From: Rozella allomycis CSF55
Lineage: Eukaryota
DNA length: 64,000 bases
Reading direction: 5' to 3'
Assembly (NCBI GenBank): GCA_000442015.1
Contig: KE561300.1
Coordinates: 1-64,000, forward strand
Positions 1-47,785 of this stretch are shown here, piece after piece. Position 1 is the stretch's first letter, and each line of letters starts with the position of its first letter. The notes below the pieces were generated by a model that saw nothing but the letters and a program-made list of their open reading frames with translations, made no database searches and had not been told where the DNA came from. The position numbers and the translations under genes are program-made.

Positions 1-668
1 GAAGCATTATTTAATGAATCTTTAGGAATTAAAGTTCGTCTTCTTGGAATAGTCATCATAGATGCAGTTGAAGGTTTAAACTTATTAAGAATTATAAATA
101 GGTACAGCGATGGAAGCTTTACCATCGATGATGGATTTCCTTAGGAAAAGGCCTCAGAAATTTAATTCAATTGACGAGGCTGTTTCATGGAGGTATCAAT
201 TTTCGATAGAATGAATTATTGTATTTCATCAAAGACTGTTTTAAATATTGATTCCGCAAAAATATCAATCCCATCGCAATTAATTCAACAGCCAGGTTGT
301 GATTGGTACACATGGAGGACCAACCTGAAATTAACAGAGTCTTTCTGGAAAGGTATAATTAAGTATCATATTTTATAGGATGGTTTGAAGGGCTGTCTTC
401 AAAGTTTCTGTCGATTAAAGCGGCCAAATTGTTAATACTTGCCGGGACAGATAGAATAGATAAAACCTTAATGATTGGACAAATGCAAGGTATTTAATCT
501 TCTATTATAAAGAAAGGAAAATTTCAAATAATCATGCTGCCCCAGTCAGGACATTGCATCCAGGAAGATTTTCCGGAGAAAGTAGCGGATGCATTGTCAA
601 CATTTTATAATCGAAATAAAAGATTAGTACTTCCTCCCAAAGTAGTAATTCCAAATAAAACGACATGA
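1..668 (+). CDS. PPME1: Protein phosphatase methylesterase 1, 3' part (5' end outside window; 4 tiny introns)
   Basis: Spliced translation IDAVEG/TAMEALPSM..FLRKRP, YTWRTNL, WFEGLSSKFL, LLILAGTDRIDKNLMIGQMQG/KFQ..GHCIQED matches PME-1 motifs. Introns at 74-101, 193-221, 353-378, 490-516. Confidence 0.92.
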
Positions 669-677
669 ATACATTTA

Positions 678-2230
678 TTAAAAGAATCCTTTCTTCCCTG
701 GCTTCAGCCTTTTGCTTTGTTTCTGGTTAAAGTTTCTATTTTCGTCAATTATTTCATCCTCCTCGACATAAAATAATCCAAGCATTCCCACATTTATGAC
801 AGAGTCTTTATTTTTCTTTTCTGCGTTTCCCGATTGCAAAACATGCTTAGTCAACTTCTTAATGTTTAAACGGCTCAACAAATTCATCAATCGACCTATA
901 GAACCTTTATATAAATTCAATTGGATGTTAAGGTTTGACAAGTCACGTTTAACAGACTTAAAATTTGAGAAAGGAACTGTTGAACCGATTGGAATTTTAA
1001 CCTTGGCAGTAAAGGAGGGCAAACGTCTGCTTTTGGTCGCAGTGTCAAAAACTACGCAATCAAATAATTCAAAATGAAGCAGATTTCTGCAATGAAAGAG
1101 AATAGAATCGATTGTTGATACGGTGACAATACATCTGGAGAGAACAATCTTTGCAAAAGTGGCTCTCAATGGAACATCTTCAAATCTTATGTAACAATCA
1201 TTAAGAGTGAAAACATTCACCTTTTGGAATAAATTATGATTAAAGTTTGAAAGATTGAAAACTTCATAACTCGAAATTGATGGATCGATTCCTTCAAATT
1301 CAATAAAATCCTGATTGGGCATTAAGTTTTCTGTTTTCAAAATATCTAACATCGTGAAAGGAAAGAAAACTTACTCATCCATTCATTATAAAGAGTAATT
1401 GGTTTTTCAACATTTTCAAACTGTTTAGATTGAAGAATGATGCTGCCAACAAAGTTAAAGTTTGAATTTAAATTTTCCAGGAGCTCATTAAACAGTAAAT
1501 TTCTATAGTTTGTAACGAAGAGCTCAGCAACTCTATATCCCTTTACATTCTTTATACAATCCACATGGCACAATAGATTGCGTATAGAATGAACATAGAC
1601 ATTATTTTTCAAATTTTCAATAAACATATCATTTGCAAAGATCTTCAATTGCATTTCACACAAGTTGTAAAACAAAATTTGAAATCTCGATGTTTCGCTG
1701 TGGTCATCTAACCGTACCGGATTCTTGATAACGACAGAATTCACATTGGTAAGAGATTTAACAATAGGTATTTCGTTTCTTGAAATGCATAACTCACTGC
1801 GCATACTTTTAATATTTATGATCAACTTTGTCACCCCTTGAATGATGGATGAGGAGCACTTTAAAAGAAACCACATGCCATCGAATAGATTATGGATATG
1901 CAATTCAGGGACATTAAAATCAACGTTTGATCTCCTAAGCTCTTTCAAGAATACCAATAGCTCCTTTTCAGAAATAACTTTCTGTAGAGAAGAAGATAAA
2001 GGTCTAAATTTTAATAAGCTATTCCAAGCGCTATTTTCCTCGTGTCTATTTCTATATTCATCTTCGTCTAGATAGAAGGGAATGAAAGGGATGCTCGACA
2101 ACAGTTTGTGAAATCTTTTACAAGATCTGGATAGAGTAGACCACGTAGGTGCAGCGAATGTCTTGTCTTGGTCGACAGATATGGTGAAAATCTGGCATAA
2201 AATTTCGTCAGGAAGATTCTGCAATTTCAT
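678..2230 (-). CDS. F-box protein with LRR-like C-terminus (two ORFs joined by a ~29-nt intron at ~1346-1374)
   Basis: N-terminal LQNLPDEILCQIF...LSRSCKRFHKLL is an F-box. GTAAGT...TTAG intron on the minus strand links ORFs 1346-2230 and 678-1352. Confidence 0.7.
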
Positions 2231-2329
2231 GTACCCTGAATTTCAAGTTTTTGGTTTCTAATCTAAACCAATGTCCAATAATAATTTTGCTAGATTTCAA
2301 AATTATATAAAGGGAAAGTGACAAAAGAG

Positions 2330-5300
2330 ATGGAAAAAGTAAATTTCCCCAAAATGACGTTTAAACTTTTGAATACTTTTTCACTTGAAGAGTTTGACTG
2401 GAAAGTGAAGCAGTTTGCGCACGAGAAATACGGTCTTAAAATAGTTATTATTGATCTTCCTGGTAAGAGTGTATTTGTAGGGTGAAATAGCACCTACGGT
2501 GAATGGTCACTTTGTACTGGCCACCGAAGCTCATGACGACGATGGATGCCCACATGTTTTAGAACATTTGGTGTTTTTGGGAAGTCATACTTATCCCTAT
2601 AAGGGTGTTTTAGACTCTATTGCGAATAGATCGTTCGCGCAGGGTACCAATGCGTGGACTGATACAGGTAATATATTTTTTAAAACATAAATAGACCATA
2701 CGTGTTATACGGTAATAAGTTAAAATCAAAGGCACTAGATTGCCACAGCAGGTTCAGAGGGATTTCTGCAGATTCTTCCGGGTACATTTATTTTATAATG
2801 ATGAAGATATAGTTTATTTAGATCATATTTTGTTTCCCACGATAACGGAAGCTGGGTTTTATACCGAGGTCCATCATATTAATGGAAAAGGGCATAATGC
2901 TGGTGTAGTGTATTGTGAAATGCAGGGACGTCAAAATTCGAATGGTGATTTAATCCATCATAAGATGTTGAATCTGTTGTATCCAGAGGGTTGTGGATAT
3001 CGAAGTGAAACTGGAGGAAAAATGGAGAATCTACGCGTTCTTCATGTGAATACTGGTAAGTCTTTTAATATTGTATAAGAGTTCGTGAATACCATAAAAA
3101 GTTTTATAGACCAGAGAATCTGAATGTTATAATTACAGGAAAGGTTGAAGAGGAAAAGTTGTTTGAAAAATTGCAACCATTGATTGAGCAGCTGGATGCT
3201 AAATACAGGGATTGTATTCCGGAATATCAGAGGCCGTGGATTGAATCGGGTGACATTCCTGACTTGAAAGAGAATATTGTGGAAACGCTGAACTTTCCAG
3301 ATGAGGATGAGAGTGTTGGAACTGTTGTTATTGGATGGCATGGATGGGGATATAAAGAGCATTTGCTTAAAGTTGCGTTTCAAGCGTTGACGACATATTT
3401 AACTGATTCTGCTGTATCACCCCTTCAGAAGACATTTGTAGAGCTTGAAGAGCCATATTGTTCTGATGTTACATTTGGAACTGTTGAAGCTATAAAGAGT
3501 TCAACTTTTGTAGAGTTTTCAAATGTGCCAGTTGAAAATATTGATGAGATTGAAGAATTGTTGATAGAAACATTGTCAGAAATGGAAATTGACATGGGGA
3601 GAATGCAAACAGTGTTAGAGAGATCAAAGTTGATACTTTTGGAGCAAGTTGAAACAAGCCCACATTCTTCAGCAGCTTTACCGTGTGTTGGTGACTTTTT
3701 GTATGGCGATAGAAATGGAAGTGAATTGGTTGAAGTATTTAGAGATTTGGAATTTACAAATGAATTGATGAATTGGCAAAAAGAAAATTGGAAGAATTTG
3801 ATTGAAGAATATTTATTGCAGAGGCCCAGAGTAGTGATAAAGGGAGTGCCATCTAAAGCACATGCTGATCTACTTAGCCACAATGAGAAGACTAGATTGG
3901 AAGAACAAATTAAAGAATTGGGGCCTGAAAAGTTGAATGAGTTGGAAGCGAAATTAGAAGAGTGTAAGAAGATCAATGAGATACCAATTCCACGTGAAGT
4001 TTTTGGTAATTCGTGATTTATGTAAATGAAGATTAGATAAATTTGTTGTACCGAAAATAAAAGATATAAAAATGCATAAAACAATTGCTGGATCTATTCC
4101 AGATATTTACGGATTGAAGAATGACTTACAAGAGAGATTAAACAATGAGGTGTTGGAATGTGAATTGCCATTTGCTTCTATTCAATTTGATTGTAAATAA
4201 ATAAATTTGAATAAATAAAGCGACATCAACAAAGTTTGTTGATATTTCTATTGGATTTGAAACAGGGCATTTGACAGGGGAAGAAAGATTGTACTTGGAA
4301 ATATTTTTAGATTTATTTTTTGAAGTTGACGTTGAAGATGGAAATGAAATTATTGATTATGAAACTGTAATTGAAAACTTACAAAAGGAAACTGTTTCAT
4401 ATGCAACCAGCTGTGGTTTAAATGGTGACGCTGATTTCTCTTGTGGTGATTTCGCTGATTTTGTTGTTTTAACAATTAAGGGATCTGTAAAATTATTTTA
4501 ATGATTAAAAAAGATTGAAAAATATGAAAAATTGATTTATTGGATGAAAATGCTTTTATTCCATTCAAAATATTCTTCAGAGAGAATTATGATTTCTGCT
4601 CAGAAAATTATCAATGAAATTCCAGAATACAAAAGAGATGCAATGAAAATTATTTCAACAGCTCAAACACTTTTTCATTACATTGCAGATTCAAATCAAT
4701 CAGCAGTTTCCCTTTTCAAACAAGATTCATTCGCTAAGACTGTTTCTTCTAATATCAAAAATGACGCTTCAGTAGTCGAGGATGCTTTCAATGCTTTTGT
4801 TAGGAAAAGTAATCATTTAAAGATAAATTAAAATAGTCGTATCACCTGAGAGAATGATGGTTTACATTGTAGCTGACCATTCAAAGTTAAATGAAATAGT
4901 TAAACCCTGGTCCAGACAATTTCCTAATTTAAATTCTCCAATCAAATTAGATTTAAATAACATTCCAAGATCACAATTAAAACTCTCTGAATTTGGCAAA
5001 GATCTTGGAAATAGATCATTCTTAATAAAGATGCCCAGCATCGAAAGCACTTATGCTATACACGTATGCAACGGCCCTTCAGACTATAACGATCCAGATA
5101 TTCCAGCTCTTTTGGTTCTTCACGAATATCTTTCAACAATGGAAGGTCCATTCTGGAAACAAATCAGAGGACAAGGACTGGCATACTCTTGTTCTATCAA
5201 CGTTTCGACGGAGGCCGGCAACATCAAATTTACAATATATCGAGCCCCAGATGCTTTCAAGGCTTTTAACGCTGCAAAACAAATTCTGTTAGACATTGCA

Positions 5301-5680
5301 GCTGATCCTTTGAACCAACTAGATGATTTCGCTATTGAATCCACCAAAAGCTCAGTCTTGTTTGGATTCATTGCTTCCCAAGAGACTCAAAGTCAAGCAG
5401 TAATTAATCCTTTTAATCTTTATAGGCGTTCCAAGCATTTGTGGACAGAGTATTAAAAAAGAGAGATCTTGCTAAATTCATGGCTGCAATTCAAAATGTA
5501 ACAAAGGAGGATATGGCCCGTGTTCTTAAAAAGTATACTTTGAATTTATTTGATTCGAACTCTTCGGATTGTTTTGTTGCTTCTACTCCTAACATGTTTA
5601 GTGAATCTATTGATGCATACAAATCATTCGGCTTTGACGTTAAATCTTATGATAAAATTGAAGATCTTGCTTCTCTATAA
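2330..5680 (+). CDS. M16 (insulinase/pitrilysin-like) zinc metallopeptidase, multi-exon
   Basis: Inverted zinc motif HVLEH in DDGCPHVLEHLVFLGS; TNAWT, GVVYCEMQG and IRGQGLAY motifs. Start is ATG 2330 or in-frame ATG 2354. Confidence 0.9.
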
Positions 5681-5814
5681 ACCAATAAATTAATTTAAAT
5701 GAGTCCTTTTTTCATTTAGTCTTTCTGGATTGGTCCGATTGGATTGATTTTTCTCAGTGTAATGTTTTTTTCGCGGGTAACGAATGATTGTCTGTTTATG
5801 TTCCTTTTACCTCC

Positions 5815-8115
5815 ATGACAACTATTGATTCATCCCCTAAGATTGAAAAGGTCACATCAGATAAACTGCCAAACCACTCAAACGGTCTATGATCCTAGCT
5901 AGCTGAATGGACGAACGGGCGCGCAATATCTTTTTAGCAAATTCCGAAATTTCAAGAATATTTGGCTCGAATGCAATCCAAATTAGAATCGATTATTCTT
6001 CAGGAAAAAGTCTTGGAAGAGTCAATAAACCATAAGATTAGTAAAATCCGCGACTTGGAGAAAGAAATATCAAATCATTTCGAGTACAAAATTGACAAAT
6101 ATAATAAAGGAAACTGGACGAGTTTAAAGTTGATCAAGATTTGCTGAATAAAATTCTGATAGACACGAAAAAAGATACCAATAGCTCTGTCGAGCCTATG
6201 CGCCTATTGCACCAGGAATTAGTAAATTGGTACTCTTCGAATGATAGACTAGAATTAAGAGTTTGCGAGCTAATTATAAACTAATTTTACAGACAGATGT
6301 ACAATTTAATATTTTTAGAGATAGGAATGTGTACAAAGGGTATTATCGAGTGTTGAAGAGTACGATTTAAATCTTGCAAAGGCTATTGGACATCTTTTAA
6401 GATTGGAAGAAAGAGTGTTTCAAGTTTACTGTTGTATAAAATCATTTGATCCAAGATCGCTCGACGAGACTATTAATAAATTGTGTGTTGAATTGAAAAA
6501 GAAGTACAAATCCAGGGTAGATTTGGAATCAGTTGAGGTTCATTATGAACTTGAAGAATTTGAGATTGGAAATTCGCTGCTTTGTGAATATTGTTGTAAT
6601 TTGATAATGGAAGGAAAGTCTCTTGAAGAATTTAGTGGAATTGAAAAGATGATTGAAATGATAGACAAGGTGAAAGAAAACTGGGAAGAAATATCTAAAA
6701 TTATAAGAGAGAGATCAATAAAATATTATGATATTGTGCAAAAAATGATAATTGAGAAATTTCAAGCTCGGATGATTAAAGTTATTGACAAGGAAGTTAA
6801 AGACAGGGGATACTTTAGTCTATCGTCTAACATTGAAAAACAAATTTCGTCAAAAGAATTCGATATTAAAACTTATGATTTAAAAGCTGTTGATGGTATT
6901 TTAACCAGGGTTGTTCAGTTCATTAGCATTATTCTATCTTTTAGAGCTAATTTTTACAAAGTAAGAATTTATGATATTTATTATTGATATTCAAACAAGA
7001 TTTATGTATTGAAAGTGCTAAATTTAGCGATGAATTGAATGGCATATATTTCCAGTTAGAAAACATTTATGTAGACCTTTGTATGCAAAAAGTAATAAAT
7101 TCATTTTTATTTTTAATTGGCAATGAGTGTCGAAGAATATGACCAGGAATCGTTTTTGTCCACCGCTTGTGACGATTGCCATTTTATCTTTAATAGAAGT
7201 TTTCAAAGAACTTTAATGACTGGCAATTCTGAAACAATTTACAAATGTTTCAAATCATTTTTAAAATCATTTGTGACGATTGCCGTTAATCAATACGAAA
7301 GAAGTTTATCAAAGGCTGAAATGTTGGTTGAACCAAATTCAGAGTTTACAGTATGAATTTCAATTAATGATCTTGTAGAAAAATTTTAATAATATCTTTC
7401 AATGTCTAAAAATCATGCAAAATTTACAGAAAAGAATTTCCAATGATCCAGATTTGAAAACAGTTCGATTGTTTCAACCCTTGCATTCAAATGTTTCTTC
7501 ATTGGAAGAAATCAAATCTAAAATGGTCGCCTCATGCAGTCAAATCGTTGAAGCTTTAAAGAAACACGTTCATAAAATTTCTTTTGCTATTCTTGAGCAC
7601 TTTATCTTTTCTAATCACTCTCAATTAGATATCTTAGAAATGACAAAGCATTGCATTCAACAAATTTCAAAGCTAAAAGTACTTTTTACAATTGTTTGTG
7701 TATAGAATTTATTTGAAAATAGTTTGGTGGAAAGACTAACGATAGATTCAATGGAAAGGCTATGTCAGACATTGGAATTGACCGTTCTGTCTACTAAATG
7801 GGATTATGTAAACATTCGATTCTTTTAAAATAGAATTCAGCTATTAAATTTTACAATACGTATTCTGACATTATTGATTTGATTCAAGAAAACTATGGTT
7901 TTCAATTCAAACAACTTTATTCTAAACTAAACCAAATGATGTTGATACTGACAATCGAAAAGGTAATAAATAATTTGCTTTATTTATAGTACACTGATAT
8001 AGTTGATCTGGTCCCTTTGAAAGACAACGGCATTGATGTTTCACCTGAAATTGTCACGTCAATTTTGGAACAACGAACAGACTTTGATTCTAATTACACA
8101 ATAAAAATTTATTAA
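5815..8115 (+). CDS. COG4: Conserved oligomeric Golgi complex subunit 4 (divergent), multi-exon
   Basis: Spliced LNGIYFQLENIYVDLCMQK/AMSVEEYD..STACDDCHFIFNRSFQR and C-terminal YSKLNQMMLILTIEK..VSPEIVTSILEQRTDF resemble COG4 signature segments. Confidence 0.7.
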
Positions 8116-8181
8116 CTTTTATATTATGTAGAAAGCAAAATATTTCCATGCTATGAAATGTAAACATCAATATTCCGTAAA

Positions 8182-11100
8182 ATGCCTTACATTCAAGGCC
8201 CTTGTTCTGCATCCGATTTCTTAAATAGCCTCAAGTTTCAAGCAGAAAATGACAAATACAATTCTTTAGACCTAAGGTATTAATTTGGATTGTTGAATGA
8301 CCAGCTTTATTCAAGACCCTGAAATTGTAAAGACTAGACTTTCAGCTGCCAAAAATACAAAGTACATATCCTTGAGCAATTCTAAATTCAATGATAGCGC
8401 ATTGGAACTAATTTCCTGCCAGGGAGAGTCCATTCGAACTCTGGACCTCAGTGGCACGGATACTAAAAGAATCACAATTAATCTCTCTAATCTTCAATTC
8501 TTGGCTGAACTAAATCTATCGAAAAATAGGATTTCAGAGCTGCCCAAAGAATTAGTATACCTTGAAAACTTGAAAAAGCTGAGCATTGCAAAATGTGCAT
8601 TTGAGTCACTATCATTTCAACAATTCGAGAAATTAAAGGCATTGACTCATTTGGATGTTAGGTAAATTTATAGAAAATTGAAAAAAAGTTTCAATCGTAT
8701 ACAATGTTTACCTGATAATTTCAATTTACCTCATTTGGTCAATTTAAACGCTCGCGGAAATCAACTTACATGTATTCCTAACAGCATAAAGCATCTTAAA
8801 TGTCTGATTAAAGTATTCGAACGTTTTTTAGTTTAATTAGCTTGATCTATCAAAAAATGATATCGTTGAATTTGAACCTATCATCTGGCGAAACCAATCC
8901 ATCCAAATTTTAAATCTCTCTGAAAATAAAATAAAAAATATAAGATTTCCTGAAGATACTCATGGGATAAAAGCTTTGATACTAAAAGGAAACTTGATTG
9001 AAGAGATCCCTTTAGGTATTACCAAAACCCCACAATTAAACATTTTGGATATGCGCAGAGTATAAAATTTATAGTTATAATATAGAATAATCTTAAAACT
9101 ATAGCTTCTGGTATGTTTCATTAATTTGCTTTGATAGATATTTGCAAGTCAAATTTAAGTTCTTTAATTCTTGACACATTCAAGTTTTTTGATTGTCCGC
9201 CATCCAAAGTTGCTGAACAAGGTTTAGAAGCAATTAAGGACTATTTTAAAATGCTTGAAGCTCAAATTCATGAAGAAAATGGGATACATGTTGAGTTTAC
9301 TATTGACGATCCTTTAAGCCAAAATGCAAATAAATTTGAAGCATCAATAGAGAAGGAATGTTCTGTTAAGATATTCCAGGGCAGTGAGAGAATTGTTCTG
9401 CAGGATATTTCATACATTTTGATCAATGAAAATGCAAATGAAAGTAAGTAAGCAGATATTTTGACATAGGCCAAATATTATTACCGATAGTCAATAATGA
9501 TACTTCCACAGTAATTCTGAATCTATCTAAAACTGGGAAATATTCAATTCATGCCCAATTGGATGGAAAAGATATCAACGGAAGTCCTTGTGAATTTTTT
9601 GTGAAACCAACTGTTATCGATCATTCAAATTCTAAGATACATGTTTTGACGCCTACCATAAAGGCCGGTGACCGTGTCGATATTCAGCTTGATATAAAAG
9701 ATAAGCTTGGGAATCTACTTGATGCGACGCATATTGACAATAATGATCTTGAGATTGTACTAGTGAACAAATCTCGTGAGTTAAGGCTCAATGTAAGAGT
9801 GAGATGGTGCTTTTATAGGGACAAATTTTCCAAAAGAATGACAAGGTGATAGTTTCAGATAAAGTCACCATTATTGGAACATACAAGCTACATGTCAAAT
9901 ACCAATCCTTTGAAGCTATTTCTTCTCTTGAAGTTACTGCAGGTAGAAGGTTATAGATTCGGTAACGTAGGCAATTGCTGTCATGTTCATTCATTTTGTG
10001 AAATTGACAATGACTATGATACGTTGAACCATGATGGTTTAAAAGTTTACATAAATATGCGTGATGAATACGACAACGTGGCTGAATGTTCTCCTTCGAA
10101 CCTAAAAATACGAATCATCAAGGCTGATGGAGAGTACCTTTTCTAGTATGTATTTAACTATAGAATATCTTATGGTATTGTCAACCGTCAAGTGGATTTG
10201 GGTAAATATGAAGCAAATGTTTATCTGACGGGATCGGGCACTTTGAAAGTAGAAGTTTTACTAAAAACAGGAAATGATGATTTTCTTCATGTCGAAAATA
10301 GTCCCTTTATAGTAGTTGCAAAGGTCAAGAGTGTTGATAATCCATCTTTGAGAATATCAAAAGACAATGTTGGCAATGGAATTCCTACTGAAGCAAGTTT
10401 CCAGTACAAATGCGATAATGATAAATTTCCAGGAATTGTAAATGATCTCTTTGATGATCCTCAAAGACTCTCAACTCCGCCTTTTGCAGCAGCGGTTGTT
10501 GTTCAACTTCTTCTACATCAGAAAAAGAGTTGCGCTTTATTAATATTTGAAAATTTTCTGAAGCTTGTCGCTCGAAAGATAATTGAAAAATACAACACTT
10601 ATCGAAACGAGCCAACTTGGGATCTTTCACTTCAAATGTACAGCTGTGCCCTGTACATTTATGGGAGTATGTTAGAAGCGGCTGAATGCGAAGTTTTCCC
10701 ATCAGACGCCCTTTCAAATTGGTTGGTAGACTTTTTTAAGGTGCTAAAGTCAATGTCAGATGACTTGGTGGAGCGTTTCGCACAAGAGAAAATTAAGAAC
10801 AATAGAAAATATGAATATCTGATTCCCAAATCATCGTTTTTCACCATTCGAAAACTAAATTTTGTTGATTTAGTGAAAAGTTTTGAAGGTTTCATTAAAT
10901 GTATGAAGAGAAATTTTATCTCACAAAATATAAGAGATCAATTAATTACAAATGCTTTAAGAGTGATTGATAATTATCTTTATCAAGAAATAAAGAGCCA
11001 TAAGAAAATATCGACCATCGAAATAAAACAGAACATTGAAGAAATCGTTAGCATTCTAGGAACATTTGATATTAATCTCAAAAGCGAAAATTGTTTTCCA

Positions 11101-11376
11101 ATGGTTCTTGAATTATCAAACTTTAATTTTCTTGCTCAGAATTCAGATATCGCTAAATTGGCGGGAGTTGTTCCCACACTTAAATATCTTGAATTCGATC
11201 CATTCATTCGTTTATTGAAAAGAAATGGATTGTACAATAAGGTACCAAAGTCTATGATTACAGAATTTCAAAAATCTTTTGGAAAAAGAGATACATGTCC
11301 AAATACCTTGCCTATGGAAATAGATACAGATTGCTTTATTAAGGTAGATCCAAAGGACTCAATCACTCTCGTATAA
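8182..11376 (+). CDS. LRR + filamin/Ig-like repeats + probable C-terminal DIL (dilute) domain protein
   Basis: LxxLxLxxN repeats (LAELNLSKNRISELP, LTHLDVSFNRIQCLP); filamin-type ends (DINGSPCEFFV, HVENSPFIV); C-terminal helical region QLITNALRVIDNYLYQEI..IEIKQNIEEI is DIL-like. Confidence 0.7.
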
Positions 11377-16615: not shown

Positions 16616-16616
16616 N

Positions 16617-17130: not shown

Positions 17131-18848
17131 TTATTGCGGGGTAAAAGGTTCGGTGATTTTTAGGCTTTGAGGAGATTCTTTGACATCTTTTTGCTGTTGG
17201 TTTCTCTTTCTATTTTTGATTTTATCTTTCAAGATATTGTACTCTCTTTTGTACAACTCTAATTCCTTAAGGACTGATGCTAGCGCAGAGTCGTTGTCCT
17301 TTCCAATAATATATATCATCTTTTGCATGTAGGCTTCATACTTTGCTTTGATTTCATTAATGTCCGCTTCTGCTCTTTGATTGACTTGGTTTATGATTTC
17401 GTTGCGTCCTTCTACTTCCCTTTTCAACTTTGCGGCATAGCCATTCAAGGCATGTTTTGATTTTTCATATTTTTGATTCAATAATGATGATTCCTTGTGT
17501 AATTTTACATTGTCTTGAAGGAGACTTTCTAATTTTTCTTGAAACGTCTGAGTTTCGGATGTTAGAGCGGATTCCGCTGAATTTAGTTTTTGGAACATTC
17601 TTGCCACTTTAATTCCCATATTCTAATTATATATGCTTTGCTTAATTTACCTTGTTGTCTTGGACAAGATCTTCATTTTCTTTGCGGATCGTTTCAATCT
17701 CTGTTTCTAACGTTGTTTCTAGTTTATAATTATTAAGGAAAATTACTTTGATCGCGTATCTCATTTAGTAAAGCGTCAATCATTTCCACCAGTGAGAAAT
17801 AGTTATAGGGAACGGCCAATTGGGGTTTACCGATTTCTTTAAACATTCCAGAGATCGTGTTAATACAATCTTTGTTTGTTTTGTCAAACTCTTCTTTTAA
17901 AACTACTAGTTTATTTTCAAAATACGTAGCTTTTTCTTTATACGATCGAAGTTCAAATTGATCGTTATAAACTTTCTTTTTGAGTGCCTCTTCCTCAACT
18001 TTTAAAGCCTCTATCTGTGTTTTCAATTCATTGTTTTCATTCAAGATTGCGTTTGTTTTCTCCAAACTGTTCTCTTTGTCTACCAACAATGCTTCTTTTT
18101 CTTGCAATTCTTTTTGAAGAGATAAAATGTCATTTTCTTTTATGATTAATTGATTTTTAATGTGGCTATATTGATCTTTCAATTTAATGAAGTTTGCTTT
18201 GAAATTATGGGATATTGTGTTGGCAATGCTTTTCATTTGAGATTCTCTATTCAAAAGAGCGTTTTTCAATATTGCTTCGTTCTTAAGAAAGCTTTTCACG
18301 TTTCCTTTAAGATTCTTTATTTTACTATCCTTTTTCAGGTTCAACTCTTCTAGATTGTTCAACCTTTCTTTCAGTTTCGTCAATTCGTGGGTTTCTTGTG
18401 ACTTTGTTTCTTTCAATTCTTTGTTATAGTATTCCTCTTTAGATCTGAATGATGGCTTTTCTTTCTCGATTTGGTTTTCTAATTCCTTTATTTTAGTATT
18501 TAGTTTCTTTCGTTGATTTAAATTCACTTCTGCTTCTTGAGAGAGCTCATCTAACATTGATTTAAGGTCCTTATTTTCGATAGATAATGTTTCTAGTTGT
18601 AATTGTAGTTTTTGATTTTCCGTAGATATATTATTGAGTTCGTTGATTTCAGATTCCTTTAAAGACTTCAATTCAGACTTTAATTTATTGGCTTCTAATA
18701 CATTGTAAGCCAGCTGTTTATTTAAGTCTTCTAACTTTAATTTATAATCTGAGATTTCATTGTTTGCATTATTGAGCCGAATTTTCAAATCCTTTGTAAT
18801 AATAGAATTAGATTCTTTTTCATTTTTAAGGTCGGATATAATTTGATT
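17131..18848 (-). CDS. C-terminal part of giant coiled-coil protein, copy B (cut at N 18849)
   Basis: ORFs 17131-17619 and 17733-18788 are paralogous to copy A. Confidence 0.75.
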
Positions 18849-18849
18849 N

Positions 18850-21800
18850 CAACTTTAATTTATAATCTGAAATTTCTTTATTTGCGTTATTGAGTCGAAT
18901 TTTCAAATCCTTTGTGATAATAGAATTAGATTCTTTTTCATTTTTAAGGTCGGATATTATTTGATTCAATTCATTCAAATTGTCTTGATTACTCAAGTAA
19001 GTGTTCTTTGATTCTTGGATGATTCGTTGCATTTCATCATTCAATGACTTTTTACTGTCTTCAGCTCTCTTGAGCTTTTCTTGCACGTCTTCTAAGTCTG
19101 CTTTGTTGCAACTTAGTTCATTAACACGCTGGCGGAACTCGGCAACTTCTTCTTTCAACTTGCCATTTTCTTCTTTCAACAGGGCAATGGAAGATTTTAA
19201 TTTTTCCACCTGCTCTTCATTCAATTTCTTTATGTCATGTAACTGATTCTCAAATTCTGGATGTAAGATTTCCTTTTCAGATTCCGCAATCAAGAGCTTT
19301 TCATTTAGCTCCTTAATTTCAACCAATTTTAATTCATATTGATTTTCAATTTCTTTTGAATATTTCTCAACTGTATCAATCTTTTCATTTAATTCATTTA
19401 TAAGTTTGATTCTGTCATCAACATCTAATTTTAACAACAAAACCTCATTTTCCGCCTTTAACAATTCATTTGATTTTAATGCTAAATTATGTTTGCAATC
19501 GTTTATTTCATCTTGTTGTCTCTCCAATTCTACCATCTTGGTATTTAATTCATTTTCAATGGTGCTTTTAAGCTCCAACAATTCGTACATTTTTTGCATC
19601 GAGATTTCAATCTAAATATCATCAATTATAATAATATTTACCTTATTTTCATATTCTTGTTTAATTTGTTCATTTTCGGCGACCAGTTTTTCAAACCTGT
19701 CAGTAAAAGAGGCCCGCCCCTTTTCAAGTTCATGCTCAAAATAATTAATTTTATTTGTTTGCTCATTAATAATCACATTTTTTTCTATAATTTCTTTCCT
19801 AGAATTTTCAATATCTTGCTCTCTGGTAACCAGTATTTTTTCCAACTCATTTTCTCTTCCATTTAACTTCTTTATTGCATCATTATAATAAATTTCTTTA
19901 GTTTTTAGTTCATTATTTTGGATTTTCAAGGATTCTACTTCATTTATGGATTGATTATATTTTTTGTTTACATCTTTCAAATTCATGTTTAATCTTTCAT
20001 TAGCAAGATTCGCTTCATTTAATTCATCTGAAACACGAGAATATTCATGAGTAAGTTTATTATTTTTCTCGCTTAAATCTTTTATTTGATTTGAGAGAAG
20101 CTCTGTTTCTTTATTTGCATCAATTAATTTATTTCTAATTGATTCATTTTCATTTCTTAAATTAATATTCTCATTATCTTTGGTATCTATTAGAATATTC
20201 CTTTCTACAATTCTTTGCTCAAGATCATTAACCCTTTCCTGCAATTTTCTTGCTCTCTCTTGTTCTTCAAACAAAATAGATTCATTCTTTTCAATAAGTG
20301 ATTCTCTATTTCTTAAGTCTTCATTCATAGCGTCTAACTTTGCATTAAAGTGTTTTTCTTTTATTTCCATCTCTTCGTCTTTCTTTGCTAGTTCCATTTG
20401 ATACTTTTGTTCATTTTGCTTTCCCTTCTCTATTGATGCAGCATATTCACTCATCTTCAGCATCTTAACTTCATTCTGTGATTTGAGTTCAATTATTTCA
20501 TTTTTCATTACATTAATTTCCATATTTTTTTCAGCTAACTCAGATTCTAATTCAGAATTATGGATCTCAGTCAATTCACCTTTCTGTACTTCATCTTTTA
20601 AAGATTTCTTTAGCGATGTGATCTCTTCATTTAACTTATCAGTACTCTTCACATATTCAACAACCTGTTCTTCCAACAATTTTGCCTCTTCATTAGAATT
20701 ATTGTATCTTCCAATCATGGCATCCATATCACTCTCAAATTTCTTCTCCAGCATTTCCTTTTCCATAGATAATTCAATTATTCTTTTATTTAATAAATTT
20801 ATGTCATCATCAGCCTTTTCCTTAATACCCTTAACCTCGGTTTTCAATTTCTCAATTTCACTATTTTTCAATTCACCGTCCTTGGTCATGTTCTTGTTAG
20901 AACACTGCAGGTACTTGACCTGAGTTTCTAACTCACTATTTTTTTCCAATGACGTATTTAGAGCATCTTTGAGAACCATAACCCCTTCCTTTATATCAAT
21001 TGACTGTTGTTTTAGCGCCTTGTTATCTCTTTCAAGCGAGTCAATTTTGAATTCCAGTTTGCTGATTTCTTTTCGCTTGAAATCAGCTTCAATGGCAACA
21101 ACAATGCCAGATTCATAACTTTTGCTCCTCTTCATTGCACTGGATTCATTAGCCCACTTATTTTTGAGATTCTCGTCATTTTCATCTTTCAATTGACTCA
21201 CTTTTTGCTCCAAACTTTTCTTGCTTTCCTCCAAATGAAGGCAGACAGCCTGCAAAGATAACATTTTACGCTCCACTGCACCGAGTTTCTCCTCCAAGCT
21301 TTGCTTTTCCTTTGCATATCCAACACAAACATCTCTTTTTGCTTCAAGCGACAATCTCAAATCACGAATAACTTTCAAAACACTTTCCTCGCTCACACCC
21401 TTCTCCAAAGATTCTACCAGCGATTCATTGGAATGCAACAAAACTGCATTTTCATGTTCAAATTTCTCAATAAGGGACTTGGCAGCATGTAGATCATTTT
21501 GCAACTTCAGGTAGTCGTTATAGTTACCAGGACTAGCTTTCCTTGTGTAGTGACTGAGCATAGACATCAAATCCTTATAGTCTCCTTTTAGATCACTGTA
21601 AGCCATCCACAATGCCTGAAAATCCATCTTTCCTTCAAAACCAGATTGTATATTTTCAGCGGTATCCAAGACTTTTCCTTGTTCAGTTACCTCGACAACA
21701 ACATCCTTTGGGCTATTCTTGTACAAGCTAAGCAATGACATTGACTTTTGCAGGGTCGCTCGGCTGTTTAGTTTTCCGGTCGCCAAGTACTCTGAATCAT

Positions 21801-21995
21801 CTTTAAGGGCTACTTCTTTCAAGGAGCGTTGTTGCCCGCCTATAAATGCGGTGTGATTATGTTACCTTGGGTGTATGGGGAAACAGTGCTTTGAGATGAT
21901 AGAGAATCCAAACTAGATGCTCTCGACTCAATTTGAAGTGAAGACTGCTTAATTTGAGGTAAATGTGTTACGCTTTGAATCGCACTTCGAGACAT
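18850..21995 (-). CDS. N-terminal and middle part of giant coiled-coil protein, copy 1
   Basis: MSRSAIQSVTHLPQI exon, intron ~21842-21868, ORF 19612-21822, intron ~19611-19640, ORF to the N at 18849; continuous coiled-coil heptads. Confidence 0.8.
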
Positions 21996-39866: not shown

Positions 39867-40262
39867 TTATTTATAGTGATGAAACGTATACTTTTGCGGT
39901 CTTTCAATTTTGTGGAACGTCCTTTTACTTAGCTTGCTGGCTATTAGCCTTCGTAGTCTAGTAGTTTGTGTTGCATTCGTATAAGTCATTTTTCTCAATC
40001 TCTTCTTTTTGTAATAATTCTTTCCGAACATTAAATGCCGCGTCCCCGCATGTTTTCTCAAAAATTTTCTCTTAATGGGATCCCATGAAAATCGCCTCTT
40101 TATGGAGCCAAGCGTTTTGTGTGTGTTTCGCACGAACATTAAACTTGTATTATTAAAACTTGTTATTCTATTATTTACAAGCCCATTTACTATTGGGTTT
40201 AATGCAATGGTGGAAAAAGACTTTGAAATTGTTAATGGGGAGCGAAATATTGATCTGAACAT
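39867..40262 (-). CDS. Mitochondrial ribosomal protein bL35m
   Basis: Presequence-like N-terminus; HKTLGSIKRRF..RKHAGTRHLMFGK..KKRLRK is an L35 pattern. Confidence 0.8.
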   Translation of the reverse strand: MFRSIFRSPLTISKSFSTIALNPIVNGLVNNRITSFNNTSLMFVRNTHKTLGSIKRRFSWDPIKRKFLRKHAGTRHLMFGKNYYKKKRLRKMTYTNATQTTRLRRLIASKLSKRTFHKIERPQKYTFHHYK

Positions 40263-40290
40263 TTCCAGGGTTTAGTTTGATTTGGGTGAC

Positions 40291-41470
40291 ATGCAAATAA
40301 TTTCGTTTGTTATATTAATTCTCATTGTTTTAGCTATAGTCTCAATAATTGCAGCTTACTATTTGGACAAGCCATTTTCAAAGTTCGAGCCTCGAGGAAA
40401 ACACATCGTGATCACTGGGGGCAGTAGTGGTCTAGGATTTAGTATTGCAAAGTTATTAGTTCAGCAAGGTAATCAAATTAAGGATCTTTGAATGGTGCTA
40501 TGGAGAATTACTAATGATAATAGGTGCTAATGTAACTATAATTGCCCGGAGATTGGATTTGCTAGAACAGGCCAAAACCCAATTAGAAAAGCATGCGGAT
40601 CTATCAAAAACAAAGATTCTTACATTGTCTGCTGATGTATCAAAACATCAAAACATTGCAGCTGCCATTAGTTTGGCGGAGAGTGAGATTGGCCAATCAG
40701 TGGATTACATTTTTACTTGTGCTGGGTACAGTCGACCTGGCTTATTTTTGGATATCGAACCTTTTGAATTTGAAAATGGAATGAAGATAAATTATTTAGG
40801 CACTGTTAATGCAATAAGAGTATCAGAGTTTATTTGCTGGGTTATTAGGCGGCAGTCCAATCCATGATCACGAAAAAGAGAAGAGGAAAAATAATTCTGA
40901 TTAGTTCCACCCTTGGAGTTATGAATCTCATTGGATACTCTCAGTATTCACCCACAAAACATGCAATCAGGAGTAATACAATTTGTGGAAAAATATCTAA
41001 GGTCTCGCTGAAACGTTACATCAAGAACTGCAACCATATCAAGTAGTTGATATTTACTAATATTTTAAAAGATTGATGTCCATATATACTACGTCTCGAC
41101 AATTTTGACTCCCGGATACTTAGAAGAAGTAAGTTGGTGAAAGCGTACGACAGAGGAAAAAACGAAACCAGCAATTACCAAGATTATTGAGGGAACAGAA
41201 ATAAGCGATGCATCACCAGACGCCCGAGCGAAAACTTTAATTGACGGTACAGAGATAACTGCAATGTAAGAAGGGTTAACAAAAAACAATCATGTCATAA
41301 CGTCCGACTTTGTAACCGACATTTTTCGCATTGCTTCTAAAGGTGTTTCTGTTGGATATGGGTTCTATGACTTTGTAATTTCGATATTTGCATCGATAGC
41401 CATTCCTTGTTGGAGGTTTTTCATACAGCATCAAATTAGACACCATGAAAAAAATGAAAAAGTGCAGTGA
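40291..41470 (+). CDS. TSC10: 3-ketodihydrosphingosine reductase (SDR)
   Basis: N-terminal TM; HIVITGGSSGLG, NYLGT, GYSQYSPTK (YxxxK) and TPGYLEE.KTKP. Confidence 0.88.
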
Positions 41471-41492
41471 AACTACTAAATAAAAATAAATT

Positions 41493-41821
41493 TTATTTAG
41501 ATTGCAATTCTTTAACAAATTGAATATACTCCTTTTGTGCAGTCTACATTTGGAAAGAAGTGAGAACTTACCTCTTTGCTCTTTCCCTTTTGACTATTCC
41601 AGCCGTTCCACTTTGCTTTGCCTTTTAAATCAAGCATGCCTGGTTGTGGGGTAGTGTTGTCACCTTCAATGGCTTGCTTGAAGAGTGAATACAATTTGAT
41701 CAAGTCATCATTGCTTGGTGTAGTTTTTAAACTCTTGGCAGCGTCTGCAGCAGCGATAAATTCAGGCTGTATCACATGTTGAAAAGCATGTTACGTTATT
41801 TGTACTTTTTGGATCAGACAT
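41493..41821 (-). CDS. ACB1: Acyl-CoA-binding protein
   Basis: PSNDDLIKLYSLFKQAIEGDN..PGMLDLKGKAKWNGW; two tiny introns. Confidence 0.95.
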
Positions 41822-41846
41822 TGTTTCTGATTTTTCAAATTCAAAG

Positions 41847-43171
41847 ATGGCATTTGAGTTGGCAAGTGTTACAAATTTGACAGTACAAAAGATCTTAAGA
41901 CTTTACAAAGGGTTTAACCTCGAAACATGTATATGGGATATCGCGAAATCCGTACGAAGTTTTCGATGATGACAGCGAACTGTTCGGTTGTGTTGGAGAA
42001 AGAAAGGTAAAATTTTGTGATTTATTTTAAATCAGATTACTTTTTTAACATTAAATGACGAAAATATTGAAATACAGACTGTTTTTAACGACGACAACGT
42101 AACGGTTGGTCTGATTCTTTATTATAGCCAAGCGAATATTTTTATACTTGTTGTTGGTGTTATGTAGGCGAAAAGTCTTTATTAGCCGCCGGAGGGTTTT
42201 GTGGAATAATTAAGATTGTAGATCCCTGGAATGGTGAATTAGTCAAGGTAGCAAAATCTTGTACTCCATCTTTAGGCCTTATACGGTCACGGGAATGACA
42301 TCAATACACTTAAAGTACATCCCAAAGATTCTACCTTGCTTTTGTCTGGAAGCAAAGATTTTTCAATAAGGCTTTGGAACGTAGAGACAAGTTGCTGCGT
42401 TGCAGTTTTTGCTGGAGAAAACGGTCATTTAGAGCAGGTCTTGGCAGTGGTAACATTATATCTATAAATTTTTTCAGGCCTTTCATCCTTCTGGTAATCA
42501 ATATAAAGGTTTGTAATTTGGGTGATTATTTTGCGTCTGCAGGTATGTGTTCCAATGTCAAAGTGTGGTCTTTGAAATGCGAAAAAGTTAAAAAAGCTAT
42601 TCTAAATTCCAAGGAGGAGAATAATATAAAAACCAGTGATTATCTCAAAGATCAATCTGATTTTTCGTCCAATGAATTACTTGGAATTTCGTACCCATGT
42701 TATTCTACCGGAAGAATACATCGCAACTACATTGATTGTATTGAATGGTATGGTGATTTATTGTTGACAAAATCCGTTCAAAATAAGATTCTTTTGTGGA
42801 AGCCATTTATTTTAGACTTTGAAAAGCCGCAAGGGATTGGAAATGGCAAATCACACCTGATTGCTGAATTGCATGCTGAAGGATGTGATGTTTGGTTTTT
42901 GCAGTTTACGTTAAGTACGGATATGAAAAATCTATTCGTTGGTAATAAGGATGGCTTTTTCATGCATTGGAATTTAGAGAAGCAATTGTCAACAGCAGAC
43001 AAAGTAAATATCTATGGTTTGTTTGAAATCAATCCTTTGTATTCTGCACGATCTAAGCGAGCAAAGACGACTATTCGACAAATTGCATTATCAGGTGACG
43101 GGTCAAAGGCATTAGCTGTCAATGATGGTGGTCAGATTTTGATGTATCGAAAGGGAAATATAATAATATAA
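41847..43171 (+). CDS. EED: Polycomb PRC2 WD40 subunit EED/ESC/FIE
   Basis: GHGNDINTLKVHPKDSTLLLSGSKDFSIRLWNV..CVAVFAG..GHLEQVL, IHRNYIDCIEWYGDLLLTKS and CDVWFLQF. Confidence 0.88.
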
Positions 43172-43257
43172 AATAAAATAATAACTATTTTTATATAAAT
43201 ATCATAAATATGATAAAAATGATCTTTGAATTGAGTTTGTTAATTTCAGTGGCTTGG

Positions 43258-46200
43258 ATGGAACTTGAGACGAATTCGAAAACAAAAAATGTTCTCAAGT
43301 CATATTCATGCTCTGAGATGTTTTTTAAGAGTGCTTCTGTTAGCAGAACCCATACTGCAGCGATATCAGTAAATATGATTTGACTGTTCCAACTAGACGA
43401 GTAATACCCTGTATATTTGGAAAAAACTGGACAAACCAGAGGTTAAAACAGAGCTTGAAGGTATTCCACTTAAGCATGTTGAATGTGGCGACGGATTTAC
43501 ATTGGTTTTAACAGAAGATCATTCACTTTTAAGTTTTGGTAGTAATGAATATGGTCAGTTGGGCTTGAATCCCCGTGTTATTCCTGTCTGTGGAATTGAA
43601 AATGATAGTTTTAATCTCTATAACACACGAAGTAAAAGGGTTGCAATTACTCGGAAAAATATTTTCAGCAAGTAACGAATGACTATAAACTTGAAAGGTA
43701 TTCAAAGTTTATTAAAAGACGAGACGATAATTCACAGGCAAAATTTGTGCAAAAACTAGCGAATATTGCAATTGAGCAAATAGCAGTTGGATCAGGGCAC
43801 TGTGTGGCGTTGGCGTATAATGGTTATGTGTATTCATGGGGATTGAATGATAAGGGACAATTGGGTCACGGGAATACTTTTAATTATGATGGGCCCACAA
43901 TAATCAAAAAACTTGTTGGAATTCCGATTGTAAAAGTTTGTTGCAAGTCTAAATCGACAATTGCTATTTGCGCATTAGGAAACGTATATATTTTTGGTAC
44001 TTTTAGACAGAATGGCGTAAATAATGTGAGTTATGTAGAGCCAATAATCTTAACTCTCCTTCATAAGCCGTTTATTATTGATTGTGCTTTTAATGAAAAT
44101 GACATTATCCTTTTGTCTAGAGATGGATCTGTTCATTTGGTTAATTATTACTATGATCTGAATACAAAATCTATAGTAATAGATCGATCTATTTCAATTA
44201 AATCTATTGGGCTAACAGAAAAACATGTTTTGATTCAATCTACAAGCAATTCAATCTATTCTCTTCCATATGGTGAATTTTGGGATAATAGAATTTTAGA
44301 TTTAAAACGAGTAGATGAATATAGATCATTTGTTACCCGAGAATGTGGAACTCTTTACTTTAAGTTACCACTGTATGTATCGAGTTCACGTGATGAAACG
44401 TTGTATTGGGATTCACCAAGTTTTATTTATAGATATTTTATGAAGAACAAAGAATTACCTGGGTCACAGATTGAAAAGGGGATGATGAATCTCTTTCTTT
44501 ATGAAAATTACTCATATCGAACGATTCCACTTTTAATTTCTATTATTTGCGATAGATCAATTTCATTTAATACATTTAGGATTGCGATTAGATTGTTAAG
44601 CAATCTTCAATGGGAGCTTGAGAAGATTTCCATTTCAATTGATGTGAAAATAGAACTAATTACTGTATTGAAAGACTATTTAGATATAATTATGGATAAT
44701 TCGGGATTAATCTTTAAGAAAAATATACAAGTCGTTGATATTTCAGTTGTTGATATTTTAGATTTTATGGGTAACATTTTTGAAACAACCTTTGAAATTG
44801 ATTATAAATTGTTTTATTGTGATAGAATCCTGGAATTTGTTGAATTATATTTTGATTTCACTTTGAATCAAATAAATGGACTTACATTTAATGATCTTTA
44901 CATTGAACAGCCAAAGAGTGGAAAGTTGGCTGATCCATTCCCAGCACTTTTTCAAGCAAACAAGTTGAAGTATTTTAAATTTACTTCATATTCGTTTCTA
45001 TTTGACATTCATACTAAATTTGAAATTTTAGAATGGGATTTTAAAAATATAGCGGCTAGTAACATGTCTAGAGCAATGATGTAAAGAATAGTTATTATGT
45101 AAATATAGGGATGCAGTTTTGGCGGGAACCAGGGGTCTAGTTAGTCGAACCGGGAATTCCATAGATGATCGATTAATGTTTGATGCTGTATTTAATATGA
45201 ACAGTGAAGGTCAATCATCATTAAGAATATATCATATTCCAGATGAAGATGAAGATGAGCATGAGCATGAGAATATAACGTTTACTGTTGATGAAATAAA
45301 ATTGAACTTTAAAATGAATGTGAGAAGAGAATTTATTCTTCAAGATACATTTGCTATTTTATCAAATGCCAGAATAGAAGATTTAATGAAACCATTTTCA
45401 GTAAAATTCTTAAATGAAGATGCAGTTGATCATGGGGGTGTAACAAAGGAATATTTCTATTTGATCACAAGAGAATTATTGAAAGATTCTAATGGAATTT
45501 TTGTTTGGTTGGAAGAGTCGAAATACTACTGGTTTAATTCTAATTCAAATGATTATGAAAAATTTAAATTTGCTGGAATCATTTTTGGTTTGGCCGTTTT
45601 CAATTCTTGCATCGTTGAAGGTCATTTCCCTTTGGCTTTCTTTAAAACCGTTTTAGGCGTCACTTGCAGCACTGAAGATTATTCAAAGTTGTTTCCAACA
45701 ATTCATAAAAATTTAAATGAATTGTTACTCTTGGCTGAAAATTGCGAAACAGATAAAGATCCAATAAAAGATCTTGATTTAACGTTTTCTATCACAAGAA
45801 AAAAAGATTCTTCAATACAAAATGTAGATCTAGTTCCAGGGGGTTCTTTTCTTCCTGTTGATAAATTCAACGTTAAAAAATATGTCAAAGACTATCTTAG
45901 ATTTATAGCAGAAAAAGAAATTTCAGAACAAATAGATCATTTTCAAGAAGGCGTCGGATCTGTTCTATGTCCTTCTGTTATTTCGGTAATTTCAAATTTT
46001 AAATCTATTTTTAGACTTTTCATCCACTCGAATTAAAATTAATCATGATGGGCGAATCTTGCAATAGTTTGGAAGATCTTGAATTTTTCAAATCAGATAC
46101 TATTTACAAAGATTACACCCCAGTTGATAACACTGTCGTCTATTTTTGGGAAATCCTTGACTCTTTCAATTTAGATGACAGAAAATTGTTTTTCAAATTC

Positions 46201-46401
46201 TTAAGCGGTAGCGATAGGATCCCATTCAAGGGTCTTTCAAGCATCCCCTTTACCATCCAAAGAGTCAATGACACGTCTAGACTCCCAGTCTCTCACACTT
46301 GCTTCAACTTGCTTGATTTGCCTGATTACAACGATAAACACATTCTAACCCAAAAATTGCTCTTTTCAATCCACAACACTGAAGGCTTCGGCCTCGCTTA
46401 G
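43258..46401 (+). CDS. Small HERC-type E3 ubiquitin ligase (RCC1 repeats + HECT)
   Basis: VYSWGLNDKGQLGHG RCC1 repeats; EDAVDHGGVTKEYF; LPVSHTCFNLLDLP; C-terminal EGFGLA. Confidence 0.92.
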
Positions 46402-46457
46402 CTTTAAATAAAAATAGAAATTTCATTATTTACCTACTACGCCACATTGTCACACTG

Positions 46458-47785
46458 ATGGCCGCTATTAATGATATTCCCCAAAAACCAGCTATCGCCA
46501 TTCTTGGAGGTGTGGGTTTTGTTGGCAGAAACCTCGTTCACTATCTCGTATCATTAAACCTTTGCTCAGATATTTATGTCATCGACAAGGCACTCCCTTC
46601 AATGTCATTTTTATCAAAGGAACATCAAAATTCATTTTCCAAAATTAAATTTAAGCAATTGAACCTATGCAATCCAAGTATCTCCATTTCTAACTATTTA
46701 TAGACGCCTGCCAAGAATTTTTTTCAAATAACAATATTGACGTCATTGTTAATCTTGCGGCAGAAACAAAGTATGGCCAGTCAGAATCAGTAAGAAATTA
46801 AAATATTGTCAACTTTGGTATACGAAGAAAGGATACTGGGCATCGCTAGAAATGTAATTGACGGGATCAAAAATAGCAGCGTCAAACTTTTCATTGAAGT
46901 GTCAACTGGCCAGGTTTATGACCCAGACAAGGTAAAAACACATATGTTTTACAACGGCAGAAACCTTCAAAAGAAAATTCTAAATTGAAGCCATGGACGT
47001 TCATTGCAAGATACAAACTGCAAGTTGAAAATCTACTTGAACAGACCGAAAAGTAGCCAATATAATGTAATCAAAATAGTCTACCATGGATAATTCTTCG
47101 ACCGGCCATAATTTATGGACCCGGTGATTTGACCGGCATCAGTAACACTCTCAGTTTGAATACAAAAGTGCCTAGGTTAACATGCGGAGCAGTTTACAAG
47201 GAATTGAAACAGAAAATGGAATTTTTATGGACAAAAGATTTGAAAATCAACACTGTGCATGTGAATGACGTCGCACGCGCCATTTTTCATGTCATTCATA
47301 ATGGAAAAAGAAATGAAATTTATAATCTCGTAGATCATGCAAATACAGGTATGATATTAGCAAATTAATGATAAAGACCAAGAAAATGTAAATTCATGCA
47401 TCAGGGATATATTCAAAATAGAAACAGGGTTTCATGGATCATTGATTTCAAATATGGCAAAAGTATTATATTTGTTTAATGATGTAAAGTTAAGTTTAAC
47501 GAGCGTTGTGGATGAGGCGAATGATAAACATATGAAGCCTTGGTCAACTATTCTCACTAGGGCTGACATATCGTACTCTCCGATCACTCCGTATCTCGAC
47601 AAGGAAGTAATTCAGTTTATAATATACGATAGCTTTTGAGTAATAATTCTTTATGTCTCGATGGAACGAAAATAGAGCAAACCGGATTCGAATACGAAAA
47701 AAATACATTAAGCAGAGAATTAATTTTGGAATCGTTGCAATATTTTGTAGATCAAAACTTGTTCCCAGACTATTTAATAAAATAA
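46458..47785 (+). CDS. NAD-dependent epimerase/dehydratase (extended SDR)
   Basis: ILGGVGFVGRNL, NLAAETKYGQ, LRPAIIYGPGD and NTVHVNDVARA; ~8 tiny introns. Confidence 0.88.

Follow-up and report, generated by a model that had tools for sequence, protein, structure and literature searches.

Six candidate introns in a 64 kb stretch of nuclear DNA from Rozella allomycis CSF55 (the window, meaning the whole stretch analysed) begin with GTA, fall within the modal length range of introns in this DNA and end not in AG but in TG (five of them) or GG (one). They are probably constitutively spliced U2-type introns with TG or GG acceptors, making up about 5% of the introns predicted, a reading to which we assign a probability of about 0.65. 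A first-pass annotation of the same DNA had reported four such introns, all ending in TTG, among roughly a hundred. The four segments were found where it had placed them (193-221, 6961-6986, 7092-7119 and 46790-46817), each with a GTA start and a TTG end, and the frame joins claimed for them were correct under the standard genetic code; two further cases were found, one of which ends in TGG, and the introns number 128. The pattern, now of six cases, is real and non-random in the sequence. Sequences, frames, lengths, the fit to homologs and the genomic bases at the COG4-like gene were observed directly, and it is from these that we infer splicing at the TG and GG ends and the mechanism proposed below. 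The five genes concerned and their relevant parts are as follows.

1-668, + strand: PPME1 (PP2A methylesterase) gene, 3' part, running off the window start (parser; human PME-1 3c5w_P)
1-73, 102-192, 222-352, 379-489 and 517-668, + strand: PPME1 exons (parser)
193-221, + strand: candidate GT..TG intron of 29 nt, GTATCA...TTATTG, phase 2 (PME-1 alignment; parser)
5971-8115, + strand: COG4-like gene, 10 exons, 635 aa in the model with TG introns (parser; Pfam COG4_m in the exon starting at 7120)
6961-6986, + strand: candidate GT..TG intron of 26 nt, GTAAGA...TTATTG (picked in all parses that allow TG)
6987-7091, + strand: exon B of the COG4-like gene, 105 nt, 35 codons (open only in the required frame; skipped by the public protein model)
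7092-7119, + strand: candidate GT..TG intron of 28 nt, GTAATA...TAATTG (COG4_m extension; parser)
41847-43171, + strand: EED-like WD40 gene, 385 aa (parser; PDB matches to Polycomb protein EED)
42450-42477, + strand: canonical GT-AG intron of 28 nt, preceding the micro-exon (parser)
42478-42493, + strand: 16-nt micro-exon between two 28-nt introns, encoding a typical WD-repeat strand motif
42494-42521, + strand: new candidate GT..GG intron of 28 nt, GTAATC...AATTTGG (EED spacing; parser)
46458-47785, + strand: NAD-dependent epimerase/dehydratase gene (extended short-chain dehydrogenase/reductase, SDR), 7 exons, 388 aa (parser; homologs)
46790-46817, + strand: candidate GT..TG intron of 28 nt, GTAAGA...ACTTTG (homolog alignment; hidden Markov model, HMM)
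60479-63338, + strand: importin-like (armadillo/HEAT) gene, 885 aa in the model with a TG intron (parser)
61900-61926, + strand: new candidate GT..TG intron of 27 nt, GTAATT...AATTTG (parser and frame only)

Gene models were built with a custom dynamic-programming parser that combines codon log-odds, a weight matrix for donors and acceptor context, and a prior on intron length, all of its weights having been trained on the window itself. The window has a GC content of 31–37%, and its genes stop with TAA, TAG or TGA, which fits the standard genetic code. Three exons were 99–100% identical to Rozella allomycis CSF55 proteins in public databases, referred to here as P0001 (100%), P0002 (100%) and P0122 (99%). 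A ciliate code, with TAA and TAG read as glutamine, was rejected, given that the exons match Rozella proteins and the standard code fits.

When only GT-AG introns were allowed, the parser predicted 122, all starting with GTA, with 120 of the 122 between 25 and 33 nt (35 of 26 nt, 24 of 27 nt, 32 of 28 nt and 18 of 29 nt), so that the modal length that had been claimed for the first four candidates was borne out. Both outliers were long: one of 59 nt in the EED-like gene, and one of 178 nt (18815-18992) which runs across an assembly N and a repeat and probably arose as an artefact of assembly. Canonical endings were TAG (74), AAG (33), CAG (10) and GAG (5), position -4 was mostly A, and no branch-site motif stood out. 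This restricted parse also split four genes at the candidate sites, namely PPME1 (1-144 and 187-668), the COG4-like gene (5971-6987 and 7123-8115), the epimerase (46458-46801 and 46852-47785) and the importin-like gene (60479-61903 and 61949-63338). With one extra acceptor dinucleotide admitted at a time, at a penalty of 4 nats, TG bridged four separate loci; the 14 other dinucleotides tested singly gave 0–3 picks each, almost all of them at a handful of recurrent problem loci or on the N at 18849. When all 16 dinucleotides competed at one penalty, seven of the 127 introns were non-AG, comprising four TG (6961-6986, 7092-7119, 46790-46817 and 61900-61926), one GG (42494-42521), one GT and one GA. 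The GT pick (41769-41796) was dismissed as spurious, being antisense to a well-formed gene for an acyl-CoA-binding protein (ACBP), and the GA pick (18820-18850) was dismissed because it sits on the N at 18849; extra picks at a lax penalty of -2.5 were taken as noise.

With AG, TG and GG allowed and donor position 3 relaxed, the parse contained 128 introns (121 GTA-AG, one GTT-AG, five GTA-TG and one GTA-GG), of which 127 were 25–33 nt long, giving a non-AG share of 6/128, about 4–5% or one intron in 20. By chance, an in-frame TG end at 25–33 nt is available for 18.5% of exonic GTA sites, and the probability of finding such an end at five or more of six loci is 1.1e-3.

The six candidates share a common anatomy. 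All six donors are GTA, as are those of 121 of the 122 AG-ending introns of the same parse, and the lengths (26, 27, 28, 28, 28 and 29 nt) lie in the modal range; in both respects they resemble U2-type introns, and the absence of a terminal AG is the anomaly. Five end in TTG and one in TGG, with last four bases ATTG (three), TTTG (two) and TTGG (one), so that every candidate keeps the terminal G and departs from the commonest canonical ending, TAG, by a single base at position -2. Their GC content is 11–25%, canonical introns averaging 25%. The 7 nt on either side of each of the six ends contain no AG, the nearest being 8–21 nt downstream, and 12–23 nt upstream or absent, so none of the six resembles the human tandem arrangement in which a TG acceptor has an AG a few bases away. 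Removal of the segment restored both the frame and colinearity with homologs in the epimerase, PPME1 and EED-like genes and at the second COG4 site; the first COG4 site and the importin-like gene are supported by frame. As judged from these alignments, homology support is good at two sites and moderate at two more. The affected genes carry no other lesion, their remaining exons being open and their remaining introns canonical.

In the epimerase gene, removing 46790-46817 gave a gapless alignment to 40 homologs across a highly conserved block, and among 1051 stop-free single deletions this removal scored best (425.0 bits) against an HMM of 84 homologs. All of the top-scoring deletions were 28-nt removals and none had an AG end. 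A direct repeat of GTA flanks the segment, so the cut can be placed anywhere from 46789 to 46793 with the same product; among these placements only that at 46790 starts with GT, and none ends in AG. It had been stated earlier that AG alternatives delete conserved residues, and the 52-nt AG option removes eight of them. The public protein P0002 translates straight through the segment, letter for letter as in the window; the model looks wrong over 46458-46860, where it starts in an incorrect frame and thereby loses the NAD-binding (Rossmann) N-terminus. A metagenome scan with P0002 returned four loci at 47–51% identity, which were generic homologs with no close relatives among them, and these were not used.

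The PPME1 exon ending at 190 aligns to residues 152–180 of human PME-1 (3c5w_P) and the third residue of the next exon opens a second aligned block (residues 184–222), leaving exactly one residue between the blocks, which corresponds to the split codon of the 29-nt TG model. The parser picked 193-221 once donor position 3 was relaxed. It had been held that the only AG option here is a 17-nt intron adding four residues; this is true from the donor at 193, where such an intron would be far shorter than any other, and incorrect for the donor at 182, which offers introns of 11 nt and 53 nt. In the same gene, the 28-nt intron 74-101 (GTTTAA...AATAG) is alone in having a GTT donor, all 127 others in the parse beginning with GTA.

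Genomic bases were checked against public DNA contigs (runs X1, X3 and X5) over 20 kb, a comparison that reached the PPME1 and COG4 sites. The assembly may have been built from run X1. Positions 1-285 showed 5–30 times the depth of the single-copy flank in these contigs, which differ from the window at 41 (T>C) and at 157 (G>A) and break off or diverge at 219 and at 285. Part of the PPME1 coding sequence falls in this stretch, which has the look of a multi-copy or mis-joined region.

On EED (9koh_D), the upstream exon of the EED-like gene maps up to residue 163 and the downstream exon from residue 169 onward, so five residues are expected between them. The model with the micro-exon, in which the canonical intron 42450-42477 is followed by the GG-ending intron 42494-42521, supplies five residues, and the model with a single 59-nt AG-ending intron (42450-42508) supplies four. 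The parser's preference for 42494-42521 was weak (1.2 nats).

In the COG4-like gene, the exon 6319-6960 is 100% identical to P0001 (hypothetical protein ROZALSC1DRAFT_28057), which covers part of the gene and joins 6960 to 7147 by one GT-AG intron of 186 nt, thereby dropping 44 codons. The first candidate (6961-6986) has a GC content of 15%, compared with the intron mean of 25%, and from its donor no AG solution preserves the 105-nt open frame that follows. That frame, exon B, has a codon log-odds of 2.86, placing it at the 31st percentile among genuine coding windows. Between 7093 and 7125 the sequence contains no AG. The nine codons at 7120-7146, which follow the second candidate, lifted the COG4_m match from 18.0 to 25.0 bits (+7) and moved its start in the profile from 239 to 228. 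The model with two TG introns outscored the 186-nt model by 10.9 nats after a penalty of 4 nats for each TG. A search with P0001 (phmmer) against 1.84 billion representatives recovered only the protein itself, so no alignment of COG4 homologs was obtained. It had been claimed that use of any nearby AG would shift the frame and run into a stop; this does not hold for two introns that both end at 7146, one from donor 7092 (7092-7146, 55 nt) and one from donor 6961 (6961-7146, 186 nt), which are in frame and free of stops. The 55-nt intron deletes the nine codons at 7120-7146.

Both COG4 sites were confirmed as genomic bases. A contig of run X1 covering 259-11368 (11.1 kb, depth 377, unbroken and with no bubble) had the same letters at the COG4-like gene, with one difference from the window in its whole length, at position 10848, where the window has T and the contigs of X1 and X3 both have G. 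A contig of run X5, from a different sample, covered 6180-7138 and showed no differences from the window. No DNA contig was seen to skip 6961-6986 or 7092-7119.

The importin-like gene is treated as one gene over 60479-63338 by P0122 (867 aa), which uses a 60-nt intron with GTG and CAG ends (61878-61937) and drops 12 codons. From the donor at 61900, the AG ends at 61937, 61943 and 61946 all lead to a frameshift and a stop, the parser kept 61900-61926 even at a penalty of -6, and the 27-nt GTA..TTG model outscored the 60-nt intron of P0122 by 9.5 nats.

Several points weigh against reading the six segments as spliced introns. The analysis covers one window, and the length prior and GTA donor weights of the parser were learned from its own output, so that the narrow length distribution is partly self-reinforced. 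RNA gave no support either way: the metatranscriptome run X10, which carries next to none of the window's words, yielded only pieces of 24–33 nt and two long-range joints of chance quality. Frames alone permit three in-frame ends per locus (TTG, ATA and TTC at the first COG4 site). Exon B has a GC content of 27%, which is intron-like and low for an exon, and by itself it has no Pfam match, and the COG4_m score of 25.0 bits stays below the Pfam gathering score of 27.1. In-frame canonical alternatives are available in the COG4-like gene (the 186-nt intron, or the 26-nt TG intron followed by the 55-nt AG one), in the importin-like gene (the 60-nt intron, which the public model chose) and in the EED-like gene (59 nt). 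Of the six sites, the comparison with contigs covered those in PPME1 and the COG4-like gene, and the PPME1 site, because it lies inside 1-285, has bases that are not independently confirmed and is the least secure of the six.

These alternatives form the basis of the first competing explanation, according to which the long canonical introns are correct where they are available (186 nt in the COG4-like, 60 nt in the importin-like and 59 nt in the EED-like gene), the epimerase and PPME1 sites are isolated acceptor mutations, and there is no general rule. It draws support from P0001 and P0122, which use such introns in frame and without stops, from the low GC of exon B and its lack of a family match of its own, and from the margin of only 1.2 nats in the EED-like gene. 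Nevertheless we regard it as unlikely. The long introns would be the only ones outside 25–33 nt among 128, apart from the one spanning an N, the 60-nt intron would have the sole GTG donor, and each of them resolves into modal GTA introns once TG and GG ends are allowed. Loss of 7120-7146 costs 7 bits of the COG4_m match and the EED spacing fits the micro-exon model, and this explanation leaves the epimerase and PPME1 sites unaccounted for. The relaxed-acceptor spliceosome suggested in the first-pass annotation is partly supported: it has the epimerase and PPME1 homology and the census of five TG and one GG on its side, and the long GT-AG alternatives in the COG4-like, importin-like and EED-like genes against it; the census itself fits a spliceosome that would tolerate a base other than A at position -2 as long as the terminal G is kept.

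Rozella, a relative of Microsporidia, lives as an obligate intracellular parasite, and in such a gene-losing organism relaxed selection might be expected. The six segments could then be dead introns, in which mutation of AG to TG or GG has blocked splicing, in pseudogenes or poorly expressed genes. This too seems improbable, given that the five genes would be hit at intron position -2 only, with their other exons open and other introns intact, and that the epimerase retains a score of 425 bits with the HMM of its family. Random decay would not be expected to keep the terminal G in every case or to produce the same A-to-T change in five of the six.

Errors of assembly or base calling that placed T or G at position -2 are a much weaker explanation. 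The scaffold does contain three Ns, its first 285 bases differ from the contigs at 41 and 157, and the sites at 42494, 46790 and 61900 were outside the comparison with reads. On the other side, both COG4 sites are identical in the X1 contig and in the separate-sample X5 contig, P0002 reads through 46790-46817 with the same letters, and the same error in six introns would be unlikely. The earlier view that the four cases were not sequencing errors therefore stands for both COG4 sites and lacks independent confirmation of the bases for PPME1.

Introns of the U12 type, removed by the minor spliceosome, have the donor consensus RTATCCTT and the branch site TCCTTAAC. None of the six donors matches this donor consensus, the five matches in the window lying elsewhere, and the branch motif TCCTTAAC is absent from both strands of the window; the donors resemble those of the other 122 introns. 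The PPME1 donor does begin with GTATC, and U12-type introns tolerate such ends: in the survey by Sheth et al. 2006 (PMC1557818), GT-GG and GT-TG termini are given for about 5% of U12-type introns, with eight GT-GG and one GT-TG among 66 non-canonical ones. The Rozella sites share these termini with that class, and differ in lacking the U12 donor and branch motifs and in being like other Rozella introns. On sequence grounds a U12 identity would appear close to refuted. DNA-level removal, as for the TA-bounded sequences eliminated by ciliates, can be set aside almost entirely, in that in-frame-spaced TA pairs flank two of the six segments (6962/6988 and 46791/46819) and are missing from the other four, the organism is a fungal relative and not a ciliate, and the absence of any DNA contig skipping the COG4 segments refutes it for that gene.

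The reading of the six as U2-type introns with TG or GG acceptors can be set beside several known systems. Paramecium, the Bigelowiella nucleomorph and microsporidia have introns of about 20–30 nt, with very narrow length distributions and weak internal signals, and to our knowledge these have been described as GT-AG throughout. The Rozella introns are alike in being tiny and constrained in length, and differ in the TG and GG ends. In yeast reporters whose 3' splice site was changed from UAG to UUG, with U at position -2 and the G kept, the second step of splicing can still occur at reduced efficiency. The TG-ending Rozella sites share the U at position -2 and the terminal G, whereas the yeast substrates were engineered and inefficient and are not natural constitutive sites.

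In human genes, according to Szafranski et al. 2007 (PMC2374985), U2-type TG 3' splice sites account for 0.02% of acceptors; each has an alternative AG within a few bases, and none acts as the only acceptor. The same authors note that GG can replace TG in chicken CNBP and propose that the choice is made at the second catalytic step. The Rozella introns would be similar in being U2-type introns ending in TG, with GG also possible, and would differ in frequency, their share of 6/128 being about 200 times higher than the human figure. As no AG comes closer than 8 nt downstream or 12 nt upstream, the Rozella TG and GG ends would be sole, constitutive acceptors. No account of non-AG introns in Rozella was found in the accessible parts of the literature consulted, which included PMC13393502 and PMC8476143; the 2013 genome paper and all supplements lay outside this scope and may mention them.

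A mechanism can be proposed, for which we consider the odds about even. The introns of the window start with GTA, are mostly 26–29 nt long, usually end in (A)TAG and show neither a clear branch-point motif nor a clear polypyrimidine one. In such introns the GTA donor together with a molecular ruler may define the intron: the 5' splice site and a fixed distance would place the 3' end in the catalytic centre, where the terminal G, pairing with the first G of the intron in the second step, might suffice. An A at position -2 would then be preferred and not essential, the terminal G alone being needed, and TG or GG would serve as sole constitutive acceptors in about 5% of introns.

Several other observations were made on the window and its genes. 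Scans with Rfam and ARAGORN identified a single RNA gene, a tRNA-Gln (anticodon TTG) at 47795-47866 on the minus strand, 10 nt past the stop codon of the epimerase gene. Spacers between genes on the same strand are tiny (38 nt at 43171-43210 and 56 nt at 46401-46458), and in so compact a genome false gene fusions and splits are easily made. The three Ns are at 16616, 18849 and 23102. Between 11340 and 20000, depth was raised and uneven and there were many variant letters in the contigs of run X1; a large gene of about 1500 codons with internal repeats occupies 17131-21995 on the minus strand. The gene opposite the rejected GT pick is the following.

41493-41821, - strand: acyl-CoA-binding-protein-like gene, three exons, between the SDR-like and EED-like genes (named by sequence motif only)

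Few signals in eukaryotic genes are as constant as the 3' AG of U2-type introns, and if these introns are spliced as proposed, Rozella would provide a natural system in which to ask what the A at position -2 does and whether tiny introns of fixed length relax the need for it. Six cases per 64 kb, in a genome of about 12 Mb, would correspond to the order of a thousand such introns genome-wide if the window is typical. TG and GG ends in tiny introns would explain the three wrong public models encountered here (P0001, P0002 and P0122). A considerable fraction of the Rozella proteins in public databases would then be mis-modelled, with predictors restricted to GT-AG introns repeating the errors, and it is these proteomes that are widely used in studies of the origin of Microsporidia and Fungi and of gene loss toward Microsporidia.

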